A stretch of 64,000 nucleotides of DNA. Source: Eledone cirrhosa. Its lineage: Eukaryota. The position numbers and the translations under genes are program-made. Positions within the stretch are counted from its first letter, which is position 1, and the number at the start of each line of letters is the position of its first letter. Shown here piece by piece: positions 14,669 to 45,898 of the stretch. Below the pieces are notes generated by a model. That model was given only the letters and a program-made list of their open reading frames with translations, was not told the DNA's origin and did no database searches. The stretch is taken from assembly GCA_964016885.1 (NCBI GenBank), contig CAXHJY010000413.1, positions 60,405 through 124,404 on the forward strand, given 5' to 3'.

Positions 14669-17600
14669 CTAATAAAACAAATTACTGACCTGATCAGGAC
14701 AGTCATAGTTGGTACAGTTGATTTTCCCGTCTGTACACCGGCATATATTGCATTTATCTTCAGACATAAATATTTGGTTGGCTTCGAAAACTTTTCCTTT
14801 AAGTTCACATTTCGATTTAGGACAGTACATTTTAGTACATGCTACTTGACCAAACTGTCCACATGTACATGTATTGCAGTCTTTTTTAAACGATTCTCCG
14901 ACAGAATAGGTCTGTCCGTTGAATACGCATGGTTTGGGGCATTTTTTCTGTTCACATTGGACTCTTCCATCCTCATGGCACTGACATTTATTGCAATCAT
15001 TGTAGAATATAGAACCGACATCATAACGTTTACCATTGTATGTACAAGAACATTGCATTTTAGTACAGCTAACTACACCATTTTGTTGACAGGTACAAGT
15101 GTTACAGCCCTGATTAAATGTAGCACCAATGGGGTAAGATCTTCCATTTTCAAAACATTTACATGGCTTGTTAGAGCACTGCACTGTACCACTAGATAAA
15201 CATTCACATTGATTACAATCATCGTAAAATCTTTGACTAGTTTGATAAACCTGTCCTTTATGTGTACATTGACACTGCTTATTTGTACATTGGACTTGTC
15301 CATTTTGTTGACAGGTACAGTTGTTACAGCCCTGTTTAAATGTAGTACCGATATCATAGATCTGGTTGTTGTATGTACATTTACAGACGTTACTGGTACA
15401 TTGAACATCTCCATTTGACTGACAAACACATTGGTTACATTCTTCATTAAATCTTTGACTAATTTGATAAACCTGTCCTTTATATGTACATTGACAACGG
15501 TTATTTGAACATTGGACTTGTCCATTTTGTTGACAAGTGCAGGTGTTACAGTCATCACTGAATTGTTGTCCGAAATTATAAACTCTATTTTTGTAGGTAC
15601 AGGTACATGGGTTGTTTGTACACTGTATACGACCATCTATTTGACATGTGCATGTATTGCAGTCCTTGCTAAATGTAGAACCAATGGGGTAAGATCTTCC
15701 ATTTTCAAAACATTTACAAACCTTGTTAGAACACTGCACAGTACCACTAGATAAACATTCACATTGGTTACAATCATCGTTAAATCTTTGATTAATTTGA
15801 TAAACCTGTCCTTTATATGTACACTGACAACGGTTATTTGAACATTGGACCTGTCCACTTTGTTGACAAGTGCATGTATTGCAGTCCTTGCTAAATGTAG
15901 CACCAATGGGGTAAGATCTTCCATTTTCAAAACATTTACAAGGTTTGTTAGAACATTGCACAGTACCACTAGATAAACATTCACATTGGTTACAATCATC
16001 GTTAAATCTTTGACGAATCTGATAAACCTGTCCTTTATATGTACATTGACATGGGTTATTTGAACACTGGACTTGTCCATTTTGTTGACAGGTACAGGTG
16101 TTACAGTCCTGATTAAATGAAGCCCCGATATTATAGATCTGGTTGTTGTATGTACATTTACAGACGTTACTTGTACATTGAACATCTCCATTTGACTGAC
16201 AAACACATTGGTTACATTCTTCATTAAATCTTTGATTAATTTGATAAACCTGTCCTTTATATGTACATTGACACTGCTTATTTGTACATTGGACCTGTCC
16301 ATTTTGTTGACAGATACAGGTGTTGCAGTCCTTGCTAAATGTAGCACCAATGGGGTAAGATCTTCCATTTTCAAAACATTTACAAACCTTGTTAGAACAC
16401 TGCACTGTACCACTAGATAAACATTCACATTGGTTACATTCTTCATTAAATCTTTGTCGAATTTGATAAACCTGTCCTTTATATGTACACTGACACGTAT
16501 TCTTTGTACAATCTACTTGACCATTACCTCGACAATAGCAAGTATTGCAATCTTCTTCAATTTTCTCTCCTACATTAAATATCTTTCCTCTGTAGTAACA
16601 TTTACACATTTTCTGAGTACATTTAACTGTTCCATCACTTAAACATTCACATGTATTGCATTCATCAGAGAATGTTTGTCCGGTTTGATAGCGAATGTTC
16701 TTGTGATAACATTCACATCCTTGATTGCTACACTGCACTGTTCCGCTAATTTGACAAGTACAAGGCTTACATCCATCTTTGAAGGTCTGTCCATGGTTGT
16801 AGACATTACCTTTATATTGACACTGGCACACATTATTTGTACATTCCATTTGACCACTGGCTTTACATACACATTTATTACATGATTGTTGAGATGTCTG
16901 TCCTACAGCGTAACGTTTACCTTGATACCAACATGTACGTCGCTGTCCATAGCCACAACTTTTGCTTGTACACAGTGCTTGGCCCGTTTCAGTACACACA
17001 CATGTATTGCAGTCGATTTTAAATGCTCCGTTATATTGTTTACCATTATGGGTACATTCGTCTGTAAAAAATCATATGATCAATAATTATATTTATATCT
17101 AACACTGTAATATCAATATGGTATATATTCTATTGTACATAAGATATTAAGCTATTGATTTTAATTTCCTGTATGTAGGGAGATACTTGCATTTAATAAT
17201 ACCATGTATATCTATATTCTATTATACGTAAGAAATTAAGATATCCACAAAAGATGTGAATTTAGTGTGTCTAGCGGAATTTTAAAACTTAATGATACAC
17301 ACACACATATACATATATATATACATACATACATTCATACATACATGACGATGGCTGCCCTCTCGTTATCGAGTATGGTCATTGCACGATATAACATTAT
17401 TAATAATTATTAATTAATGCTACTGTGCAATGCCTGTGCGAGAAGATTCTTTTTAAAGTGAGGAAAGACTGAGCACTGAGCGACAGTAGCTTTAACCCGA
17501 AAAGAAGCAAAGATCAACATCATCGGTAACTACCGAGCCGCATGTTTTATGTCGGAGTTATCCCAGTTTCCTCAGTTGCTTCTCCTAGAAGAATGTCCTG

Positions 17601-19001
17601 ATAAAGGCTATGGGTCCTTCACTCCCAGTGGTTTAACCATGCGATCGGGTATCTAGCCCGATTATCTCCATGTCCCCCGCGCATTTGGTTGTCCGTGTAA
17701 CTCTTATGAGTTCTTCCGCCCTTTGTCAGGTTTTGTTTTTTGTCCAGCAGGGTGTCCAAAATCACCCTCTTCACCAAGTGAACTAGGTGGGGTTGTCGGT
17801 TTAGTCACCGACGACCTGACTATGTGACAGTCTGTACTGTGTTACATGTTACCAGTAGCACGCAAGAGTGACCTGTAATACATACATACATAAGTTCTCA
17901 GATAGATATTTTTAATAAAAAAATGAGTTTTGTTTTCATTGACCATAATACGGTCTTCCAACAGAAAAACTACTAACACAATAATGACATCAATGTAAAA
18001 TCATAGAAAACAAAACAGATAAACAAAAAATATACAAAATTTTACTTGAGAATATAATGACATATTTACAATACTTTCTAAAGAAGAACAACACACATTT
18101 TTAAGCACATTAATTAAAGAAGGAAATCCAACGTTCAAGATCCTTTAATTTTCTGTGTCTTCGAGAATGGTGTGAAAAAAGAAAAAATTACCTCCAAATT
18201 AGAGATTTTTCTTGAATCTTTGCAGTAGAGTGAACTACGTTAAAGGTAAAAAACAACCAAAGCGGTAGTGTTAAGCTGGATTACGTATTAAATCCATCAC
18301 TGAAGACACTATAGAAGGCAAATAACCGTAAGAAATATCACATCTCATCAGATGTTGTAACAAATCTAACTATACACCACAATAGATTATGGAAGACACA
18401 TTTTACCACAATGAGGTGTGAAATTTGAGTGGAAAGAGTCACGACAAATACCACAAAGTATTATGTTCGATGTTCTATCGACTCTGTCAATTCACCATCC
18501 TAAAGAACAATGAGATGTAACTGATCACATATATAGATCGATAACTTCTCTATCAATCGCGATAGAGCTTACAAGACCTTACACTTTGTTTTTCAACAAT
18601 TGTGAACAATGTGAAGATGTAAGACGTACTGGTATCTTATACATCTGACCATATAAATAACATAAGATTTAAACATGAAACACTAGAGAGAAGTTTGTCC
18701 TGTTGATCATTGGCTTCTCGTCTCCTTGGTGTCACAATACGGAATATTTGATATTACCTATGTATCTAGGTACTGTAATGTGTCATCTGATATTTTAGTG
18801 GACAGGTAAGTCCTAATAAACTTCAACTCTCATAGAGTCACCCTGGAGCTATGACACGTCTTGTGTACAATTGATAAATTCAACTAAACTAATTTAAAAC
18901 ATCAACAAATATACAATATATAGCAATATGAATTACTTACAGTTGTTGTAGCTGTTTACGAATGAAAATGCTGCTAATACTACTAGCAATTGGTACAACA
19001 T
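14669..19001 (-). CDS. Secreted cysteine-rich multi-domain protein, paralogue A: 21 tandem 37-aa pacifastin/VWC-like modules, ~817 aa. Exon 1 is 19001-18941 and exon 2 is 17061-14669 (possible donor after 14690).
   Basis: ACCACC-ATG start. Exon 1 encodes MLYQLLVVLAAFSFVNSYNN (signal-peptide-like) and ends in a phase-1 GTAAGT donor. The acceptor TTTTTTACAG at 17062 restores the frame (T+AC gives Y-ECTHNGKQY...). The module is C-x16-C-N-x-C-x-C-x3-G-x3-C-[TS]-x3-C. No stops or frameshifts. Confidence 0.9.
17347..17876 (-). mobile_element. Diverged subfamily of the SINE-like element inside intron 1 (also 44243-44777)
   Basis: The reverse complement starts caggtcac..gtgctactggtaacat and ends ctcgataacgag.gggcagcca..(atgt)n. 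Confidence 0.75.
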
Positions 19002-44100: not shown

Positions 44101-45898
44101 ATGTATATCTATATTCTATTATACGTAAGAAATTAAGATATCCACAAAAGATGTGAATTTAGTGTGTCTAGCGGAATTTTAAAACTTAATGATACACACA
44201 CACATATACATATATATATACATACATACATTCATACATACATGACGGTGGCTGCCCTCTCGTTATCGAGTATGGTCATTGCACGATATAACATTATTAA
44301 CAATTATTAATTAATGCTACTGTGCAATGCCTGTGCGTGAAGATTCTTTTTAAAGTGAGGAAAGACTGAGCACTGAGCCCATCCGATTCTCTGAGCGACA
44401 GTAGCTATAACCCGAAAAGAAGCAAAGATCAACATCATCGGTAACTACCGAGCCTCATGTTTTATGTCGGAGTTAACCCAGTTTCCTGAGATGCCTTCTC
44501 CTAGAAGAATGCCCTGATAAAGGCTATGGGTCCTTCAATCCCAGTGGTTTAACCATGCGATCGGGTATCTAGCCCGATTATCTCCATGGTTGTCCGTGTA
44601 ACTCTTATGAGTTCTTCCGCCCTTTGTCAGGTTTTGTTTTTTGTCCAGCAGGGTGTCCAAAATCACCCTCTTCACCAAGTGAACTAGGTGGGGTTGTCGG
44701 TTTAGTCACCGACGACCTGACTATGTGACAGTCTGTACTGTGTTACATGTTACCAGTAGCACGCAAGAGTGACCTGTAATACATACATAAGTTCTCAGAT
44801 AGATATTTTTAATCAAAAAATGAATTTTGTTTTCATTGACCATAATACGGTCTTCCAACAGAAAAACTACTAACACAATAATGACATCAATGTAAAATCA
44901 TAGAAAACAAAACAGATAAACAAAAAATATACAAAATTTTACTTGAGAATATAATGACATATTTACAATACTTTTCTAAAGAAGAACAACACACATTTTT
45001 AAGCACATTAATTAAAGAAGGAAATCCAACGTTCAAGATCCTTTAATTTTCTGTGTCTTCGAAAATGGTGTGAAAAAAAGAAAAAATTACCTCCAAACTA
45101 GAGATTTTTCTTGAATCTTTGCAGCAGAGTGAACTACGTTAAAGGTAAAAAACAACCAAAGCGGTAGTGTTAAGCTGGATTACATATTAAGTCCACCACT
45201 GAAGACACTATAGAAGGCAATTAACCGTAAGAAATATCACATCTCATCAGATGTTGTAACAAATCTAACTATACACCACACTAGATTATGGAAGACACAT
45301 TTTACCACAATGAGGTGTGAAATTTGAGTGGAAAGAGTCACGACAAATACCACAAAGTATTGTGTCCGATGTTCTATCGACTCTGTCAATTCACCATCCT
45401 AAAGAACAATTAGATGTAACTGATCACATATATAGATCGATAACTTCTCTATCAATCGCGATAGAGCTTACAAGACCTTACACTTTGTTTTTCAACAACT
45501 GTGAACAATGTGAAGATGTAAGACGTACTGGTACCTTATACATCTGACCATATAAATAACATAAGATTTAAACATGAAACACTAGAGAGAAGTTTGTCCT
45601 GTTGATCATTGGCTTCTCGTCTCCTTGGTGTCACAATACGGAATATTTGATATTACCTATGTATCTAGGTACTGTAATGTGTCATGTGATATTTTAGTGG
45701 ACAGGTAAGTCCTAATAAACTTCAACTCTCAGAGTCACACTGGAGTTATGACACGTCTTGTGTACAATTGATAAATTCAACTAAACTAATTTAAAACATC
45801 AACAAATATACAATATAATACAATATGAATTACTTACAGTTGTTGTAGCTGTTTACGAATGAAAATGCTGCTAATACTAGTAGCAATTGGTACAACAT
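41122..45898 (-). CDS. Secreted cysteine-rich multi-domain protein, paralogue B: 25 modules, ~965 aa. Exon 1 is 45898-45838 and exon 2 is 43958-41122 (possible donor after 41143).
   Basis: Same splice signals and signal peptide (MLYQLLLVLAAFSFVNSYNN). The ORF is 148 aa (4 x 37) longer than paralogue A and is uninterrupted. Confidence 0.9.

Follow-up and report, generated by a model that had tools for sequence, protein, structure and literature searches.

The 64,000-nucleotide stretch of the Eledone cirrhosa genome analysed here (the window; assembly GCA_964016885.1, contig CAXHJY010000413.1, positions 60,405 to 124,404) holds two copies of a gene from an expanding family of at least 26 genes for long, disulfide-rich, predicted secreted proteins, in which most modules are joined to the next by a single residue and the cysteine frame is under purifying selection. 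An initial annotation, made from the letters of the window, had proposed an expanding family of this kind, and in this it was right. With slightly better than even confidence, the sequences would point to a secreted structural or scaffold chain that is non-inhibitory, perhaps with one inhibitory head near the C-terminus. The window forms the end of its contig (C440, 124 kb) in an assembly of 3.0 Gb.

Gene structure and module pattern

Each of the window genes lies on the minus strand and has three exons. In copy 1 the TATA box (19109), the 5′ untranslated region (UTR) and exon 1 (coding 19001-18941) span 18941..19109; exon 1 encodes MLYQLLVVLAAFSFVNSYNN, which by inspection looks like a signal peptide, and ends in a phase-1 donor. 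The ATG at 19001, the donor after 18941 and the acceptor at 17061 are present and in frame. Exon 2 (14690..17061, donor at 14690) encodes 21 modules of six cysteines, and exon 3 (13003..13089), placed by homology to a paralog exon, encodes VRRY and a stop, followed by the 3′ UTR with AATAAA at 13003. In copy 2 the TATA box (46003) and exon 1 (ATG 45898) lie at 45838..46003, exon 2 (41143..43958, donor at 41143) encodes 25 modules and is 444 bp, or four modules, longer than that of copy 1, and exon 3 (39451..39537) is identical to its counterpart. The minus-strand open frames at 17071-14672 and 43968-41125 (800 and 948 amino acids, aa) become predicted proteins of 815 and 963 aa once exon 3 is joined. 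The description of one intact gene per unit of about 26.5 kb, with a TATA box, a signal-peptide exon and a long exon, stands with the first exon taken as signal-peptide-like, but the third exon had been missed. If intron 2 is kept, the frame of copy 1 reads through (14640..14689) into VSNLFY and a stop at 14669 that is reached only in this way, with AATAAA just after; the sequence, together with a contig of sequencing run X2 over 14500-14717, suggests a possible minor 3′ end here. The exon-1 peptide and the intron phase are kept in 16 of 18 paralog stretches examined, the remaining two being one split exon 1.

The 126 and 150 cysteines of copies 1 and 2 resolve into their 21 and 25 modules, with a spacing of C-x16-C-x2-C-x-C-x7-C-x4-C in all window modules except the first and last. 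As had been noticed from the letters, most modules are joined by a single residue: C-x-C junctions make up 17 of the 20 in copy 1 and 21 of the 24 in copy 2, and one-residue junctions 396 of 482 family-wide. The gap between the first and second cysteines (C1-C2) is of 16 residues in 459 of 509 modules across the family, and of 14 or 18 in the remainder. Within this gap, canonical modules (n = 454) have Tyr at position 8 in 438 cases, Phe at 14 in 416 and Gly at 5 in 331; Asn follows C2 in 434 and a Gly is found in the C4-C5 loop in 431. The annotated 16-residue first gap with its Tyr, Gly and Phe residues is borne out, and it matches a published ‘ancestral’ class of pacifastin-like domains, described as common in molluscs and as carrying a Gly- and aromatic-rich C1-C2 hairpin of 13-20 residues (Rodriguez-Aguilar et al, 2026, PMC13388995; this and the other publications cited were available in part). 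The fit to the established pacifastin core holds for its six cysteines, with the corrections that seven residues lie between C4 and C5 and usually T/S-N/S-N/K-x between C5 and C6.

Two types of module alternate in exon 2, and a Q-type module, mostly without Gly at position 11, never adjoins another (0 of 387 junctions). This strict alternation is not read as a mark of selection: only 2 modules that are neighbours reach an identity of 85%, so that amplification in pairs explains the pattern. The alternation may be inherited from such paired amplification or may reflect a two-module packing unit.

A family of at least 26 genes

Exon 1 has 25 matches in the genome at 83-100% identity, two of which are the halves of one split exon, giving 24 loci; two further family genes (C451:7.4-13.8 kb and C1:431 Mb) have no exon-1 match. 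The resulting count, which confirms that paralogues exist well beyond the window, is a lower bound, with 147 of 246 candidates scored. Family loci are found on contig C1 at 206.8, 207.6, 217.3-217.75 and 431 Mb and on C4, C157, C451 and C440, with 14 genes in tandem on C1 at 217.3-217.75 Mb and three on C440. Exon 2 is open in 24 of the 26, with frames of 340-2206 aa and 8-59 modules in one exon. Steps in length are whole 111-bp modules in 21 of 22 open genes of two close subfamilies and mostly comprise pairs of the two module types; the end modules are fixed, and the middle modules vary and are homogenised. All genes have a net positive charge (isoelectric point, pI, 7.4-8.6).

Three members stand out. 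A single open exon of 6.6 kb with 59 modules lies at C157:53675-60292. That at C451:7421-13831 is 6.4 kb long with about 57 modules, two of them with an extra Cys, and the gene has 25 N-glycosylation sequons compared with 0-2 in the other close paralogs. At C1:431086502-431088739 lies an older, diverged single-exon paralog (746 aa) whose linkers have 1-6 residues; its existence suggests that genes had the one-exon layout before the C-x-C expansion.

Purifying selection acts on the cysteine frame across the family. Six paralog pairs, chosen by us with no gene used twice, differ by 126 changes, of which none falls on a Cys against 16-19 expected and 42 are synonymous against 24-32 expected (P 8e-5 to 0.03 according to the transition bias). 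Open frames were chosen for these pairs, so the absence of stops is biased; six Cys are built into the module pattern itself, but the six-pair genes contain no skipped module. For the end modules, Nei-Gojobori ratios range over 0.30-0.54 inside one subfamily; the other subfamily gives 0.39, and comparison across the two gives 0.30. The residues other than Cys are weakly constrained (omega 0.5-0.74 with transition bias, six pairs), and neither the end modules nor the six pairs show the excess of amino-acid changes expected of diversifying selection (omega 0.3-0.75).

Domain identity and predicted fold

The three profiles to which the initial annotation had likened the modules, Pacifastin_I, VWC and TILa, all match exon 2 in Pfam, as does FnI_RECK, and Pacifastin_I matches all 21 and 25 modules. 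The best VWC (PF00093) match covers profile positions 1-43 of 57. A full VWC domain has both subdomains and about ten Cys, and the true kielin/chordin-like protein (KCP) and crossveinless-2 carry a C-terminal VWD domain. The modules here differ from these, with six Cys per repeat, no Pfam match to VWD in exon 2, and an exon 3 that encodes only four residues.

A model of five modules is all-beta with five strands per module, two of the predicted strands lying inside the C1-C2 gap, and has a predicted local distance difference test score (pLDDT) of 84 and a predicted template-modelling score (pTM) of 0.41. The top ranks from Foldseek and VIA-align are pairs of fibronectin type I modules, the VWC modules of NELL, collagen and CCN3, and VWF and mucin modules. 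The best fold match, 2cg6, has a middling Z of 7.3 with a root-mean-square deviation (rmsd) of 4.2 over 74 aligned residues; single-module fits to MUC5B and FCGBP give an rmsd of 0.9-1.0 over 33-35 residues with a Z of only about 2. Matches to clostridial repeat solenoids were set aside as noise (template-modelling score below 0.21), and the ESM Atlas gave no usable match for exon 2, which shows neither absence nor novelty. By their sequence marks the modules belong to the ‘ancestral pacifastin-like’ class; their predicted fold is that of fibronectin type I, and they are not full VWC domains. Strings of fibronectin type I modules and the small modules of VWF and mucins (PDB 2cg6, 3ejh, 8oes) share the predicted fold and the bead-on-string layout; the proteins here differ in having six Cys and 37 residues per module and no other domains, and Z is at most 7.3. 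The ‘rod’ of the initial annotation survives as a long chain of beads, its rigidity being conjectural at a pTM of 0.41.

Transcripts

Of four sequencing runs from one study (X1-X4), X1, X3 and X4 are from one sample, and X2 is RNA-like in its coverage pattern. It is read as RNA because bins of exon 2 reach 1,071-53,285, whereas the non-repeated part of intron 1 has 13-20, and because a repeat in intron 1 reaches 91-9,600 compared with 59,000-400,000 in the other three runs. From its summed depth in those DNA-like runs, this repeat (17288-17943) is a very abundant interspersed element.

An X2 contig with its end at 14693 continues with letters that have no match in the window; in three paralogs an exact match to them follows an AG some 0.55 kb downstream of exon 2, so that the contig end at 14693 is a splice from exon 2 to a paralog exon 3. 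This paralog-type exon 3 has no match in the window with up to 3 mismatches; the more diverged version of the window was located by alignment. A window-type X2 contig, with one difference from the window over 14688-14840 where 12 other compared paralogs differ at 7 or more sites, ends at 14688, where intron 2 and exon 3, both of which start with GT, diverge. This is indirect support for the splicing of window-type transcripts to exon 3. The window-type 3′ contig has a depth of 658 in X2 and the paralog-type one of 6127, a ratio of about one tenth, although the depth of contigs reflects expression poorly. The joint 18941/17061 is listed in none of the four runs, but exon 1 is thinly covered in X2 and contigs drop short ends, so this is uninformative either way.

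Duplication of the unit

The tandem units of the window lie about 26.4-26.9 kb apart and are 94-99% alike, and C440 as a whole has three gene-bearing units and one partial unit. In one possible register of the boundaries the unit (about 26.4 kb) runs from 5429..31826, with the gene, broken pieces of retroelements without long terminal repeats (non-LTR) and microsatellites; the next runs from 31827..58661, with a partial further unit beyond it up to the contig end. An inverted 0.8-kb fragment of the gene, made up of the end of intron 1 and the first module, is found upstream of the three units (C440:32562-33364).

The initial annotation had regarded the gene as the only intact coding sequence in the unit and had proposed that its dosage or diversity drives the duplication. 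The retroelement frames are indeed all broken in both units, the longest being 564 aa, and the content outside the gene is ordinary decayed retroelement DNA. The two units, however, differ by 0-1.7% in all 10 parts compared, gene and flank alike, and at this divergence chance alone would leave exon 2 open with p = 0.3-0.6. With about 1% divergence leaving the frame open by chance, the intact state of the gene is no evidence on what drives duplication, and with no excess of amino-acid changes and nothing but decayed DNA beside the gene, the proposed driver is not supported. For the duplication alone, there is not far short of an even chance that the three C440 units arose by recent, selectively neutral expansion of a segment in a region rich in repeats, with a gene that is functional in the family and extra copies that are passengers. 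The like divergence of gene and flank and the chance of an open frame would fit this, as would, on a weak measure, the lower X2 depth of the window-type 3′ contig. On the other hand, amplification of the family has occurred separately at several sites and at different times with nearly all copies open, which suggests that extra copies are kept.

Inhibitor or structural chain

At P1 of the reactive loop, 311 of the 379 modules that are followed by a C-x-C junction carry Asn or Ser and 30 carry Lys or Arg, and K-M or R-M loops number 6. The penultimate module, set off by linkers of 3-4 residues, reads TKMY in 14 genes out of 24 and TNMY in another 6. In contrast, 28 modules of genes on C2 and C26 with one exon per module (six 10-kb stretches) have Lys or Arg at P1 in 19 cases, Met at P1′ in 23 and Asn or Ser at P1 in none. 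The linkerless family has thus lost the loop type of solved inhibitors, which its cousins retain, and since most beads are without the usual protease-blocking tip, chain-like building material is likelier than an inhibitor. Conventional pacifastins (PF05375, MEROPS I19) have the same six-Cys core, C-x-C-x2-C-x-C-x7/8-C-x4-C, and the arthropod inhibitors (locust SGPI/LCMI, PDB 2xtt, 1kio) share C-N-x-C-x-C...C-T-x3-C, their K-M loop recurring here in the penultimate module. Their C1-C2 loop is short, with 9-12 residues (PMC13388995) against 16 here, P1 is basic or hydrophobic where Asn or Ser prevails here, and cleavable linkers free the single domains where the junctions here are mostly of one residue. 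Conventional pacifastins are further marked by disulfides 1-4, 2-6 and 3-5 and by measured protease inhibition.

The array on C2 (C2:217294655-217376385) accounts for 46 of the 139 Pfam matches listed, most of them spaced by about 1.4 kb. Those of its modules that were read are near-identical with a T-R-M-F loop; the array is a candidate for a many-headed inhibitor and gives the linkerless family a natural control. The cluster on C26 (C26:14019333-14074031) occupies both strands and has K-M, R-M and Q-M loops; by sequence its modules resemble Octopus bimaculoides P0033 and may correspond to the short pacifastins of the salivary gland.

For the structural or scaffold chain that we favour, we infer secretion, folding and a role in a matrix from the sequence. 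The signal peptide would export the chain, each 37-residue module would fold with three internal disulfides, and the one-residue junctions would offer no release site and give a protease little space around the C5-C6 loop. Length would change by unequal crossing-over inside exon 2, mostly by module pairs (222 bp), between the fixed end caps, and whole genes would multiply by tandem duplication, taking the decayed DNA of their flanks with them. The matrix of the arm or skin is a first guess at the site, by analogy with the argonaut eggcase proteins discussed below.

Several observations weigh against such a chain. Two of the 26 genes are broken, one by a frameshift and the other by a split exon 1 and stops. 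The best solved match of the C-terminal part by phmmer is a locust pacifastin inhibitor (2xtt, E 1e-5), and Asn or Ser at P1 is compatible with an unusual protease target. The weak constraint on residues other than Cys fits a spacer but equally a relaxed function, and with the low pTM the geometry between modules, the rod shape and any steric blocking are matters of inference. Pacifastins have also been reported in the proteome of the posterior salivary gland of O. vulgaris, and as highly expressed in that gland (PMC7693380).

It is unlikely, in our estimate, that the proteins are many-headed serine-protease inhibitors, perhaps from the salivary (venom) gland, the ink or the mucus, with gene number acting as dose. 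An inhibitor would account for the Pacifastin_I match on every module, for the presence of 16 pacifastin-type inhibitors among the 20 solved sequences that match the C-terminal part, and for the gland expression, and the ancestral class is enriched in K-M, among other pairs (PMC13388995); a pacifastin-domain peptide is also listed in the O. vulgaris ink proteome (PMC10142993). The P1 residues and the lack of linkers to process nevertheless make this the weakest of the roles that the initial annotation had offered. Two of the three gland pacifastin groups, those seen in the supplement of PMC7693380, are 161 and 162 aa long against 815 and 963 aa for the window proteins and 340-2200 aa across the family, canonical-looking pacifastin genes are present elsewhere in the genome on C2 and C26, and an excess of amino-acid changes is lacking.

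Rather less probable again is a multivalent binding or agglutinating defence protein of the mucus, haemolymph or egg surface, whose avidity would rise with length and gene number. The net positive charge of all the genes would suit such a role, strings of fibronectin type I modules are established to bind partners along strand edges and such complexes are among the fold matches, and cationic, Cys-rich cuttlefish egg-case proteins agglutinate bacteria (PMC4500399). However, diversifying selection was not detected, the middle modules are homogenised and not diversified, and the cuttlefish proteins (SepECP) are described as repeat-free and were rejected as homologs, being of a different class. 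In the available parts of PMC4500399, PMC9635652 and PMC8976471 there is no match to the module family.

Read depth and assembly

It is very unlikely that the copies are an artefact in which one locus, or two haplotypes, has been written out several times in the assembly. The depth of each listed piece was divided by the mean number of assembled copies of its 31-mers, and the resulting depth per copy is even, at 9.2-10.9 in X1 (8 of 8 pieces), 6.9-8.8 in X3 (6 of 8) and 6.4-9.3 in X4 (7 of 8), the three pieces excluded from these ranges lying inside or beside repeated modules. Regression on pieces with at most 1 difference (n = 6, 4 and 5) gives a C440 copy a weight, relative to a copy elsewhere, of 1.1 in X1, 2.0 in X3 and 1.1 in X4, far from the value of about 0.33 that a triple assembly would give. 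The evenness per assembled copy means that the three C440 copies are not one locus assembled thrice, and mis-assembly, for which the initial annotation had allowed, is improbable. Three distinct units lie on one contig, and the 14-gene array lies on a contig, C1, of 443 Mb. For an artefact it may be said that C440, C451 (196 kb) and C157 (66 kb) are small unplaced contigs that could be alternate haplotypes of the C1 array, and that the depth comparison is one between copies.

Other features were seen along these contigs. C440 carries a tandem array with a period of 615 bp and an identity of 99.9% (C440:5624-13161), and, at 20.2-21.8 and 23.3-26.0 kb, two long blocks of self-complementary sequence of low complexity. 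On C2, at 115.2, 163.8, 206.2 and 345.1 Mb, there are seven nuclear cox1 matches, whose ages differ by their stops. The cox1 gene of the assembly, with nad2 and cox2 on its strand within 4.3 kb, has AGA and ATA at positions where Ser and Met are expected; this codon use speaks against a cnidarian, echinoderm or ascidian origin, and the octopus-like protein that it encodes makes an octopod likely.

Relation to known proteins

A BMP/TGF-beta modulator like kielin/chordin-like protein or crossveinless-2, acting through first subdomains of VWC, is highly improbable, since the VWC profile match, the automatic names of relatives and the BMP-binding role of the first subdomain in crossveinless-2 (PMC2944808) are set against a match to only part of the VWC profile, no match to VWD or any other domain, and 26 copies of freely varying length, which would be unlike a developmental regulator.

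Neither the module class nor long precursors of many modules nor VWC-only proteins in octopods are new. With the ancestral class of PMC13388995 the modules share the six-Cys core, the Gly/Tyr/Phe-rich hairpin, Asn after C2, Gly in the C4-C5 loop and few processing sites; they differ in the one-residue junctions over up to 59 modules, the single exon, the at least 26 genes and the Asn or Ser at P1. That paper cites a placozoan precursor with 42 domains and about 2.4 copies per non-arthropod species, and its main text and two of its supplements name no cephalopod. The best named relatives of the modules are O. bimaculoides proteins called VWFC or kielin/chordin-like (A0A0L8H6G5, XP_052827938.1; P0045-P0049), which consist of 11-18 six-Cys modules and nothing else, at 31-35% identity, but have Thr/Lys-rich linkers of 10-22 residues, a mostly longer first gap and no C-x-C junctions.

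Of the 221 database proteins compared, 6 show at least three C-x-C junctions when a strict pattern is applied. The only long proteins found with repeated C-x-C are P0001, P0002, P0051 and XP_062577437.1 of Saccostrea (P0095), all with mixed module spacing. The first three are unnamed marine proteins, with signal peptides or partial ends, that form long C-x-C chains of the same module and possibly arrived at this design independently. Because exons of this kind would collapse in assemblies from short reads, the rarity of these chains in databases carries little weight. The literature covered, which excludes subscription journals, yielded no account of an octopod family that is linkerless and single-exon, with one-residue junctions over up to 59 modules and at least 26 genes.

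In two Argonauta species, VWC-only ‘kielin/chordin-like’ proteins are the most abundant proteins of the eggcase matrix, with 9 and 13 contigs (bioRxiv 10.1101/2021.07.10.451900). As far as the published description allows comparison, the likeness to the family here is that they are octopod, have VWC-type modules only and have many members. A VWC/pacifastin protein also occurs in the Lottia shell matrix (PMC4094399). The available text of a paper on the oviducal gland of O. maya mentions VWC2 only, and that of the argonaut genome paper has no passage on kielin or VWC.

Implications

One genome here holds both states of one module, as one exon per module with canonical inhibitor loops and as linkerless single-exon chains without them. 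Comparison of the two states is a natural way to test if ‘ancestral’ pacifastin-like domains serve as inhibitors or as matrix beads, the proposal in the available part of PMC13388995 being computational only. With short-read collapse and misleading automatic names (kielin/chordin-like, reduvitoxin-like), the size of such genes has probably been underestimated.

A bolder suggestion, which we consider doubtful, is that these genes make up an undescribed octopod fibre family: disulfide-locked, linkerless beta-chains of gene-tuned length (8-59 modules), former inhibitors without their tips, and the counterpart or possible source of the argonaut eggcase matrix proteins. If the two are homologous, this would point to the nature of a benthic octopus secretion ahead of its use in a shell-like case, and were the fibre family real, the origin of the argonaut ‘second shell’ would become directly testable.

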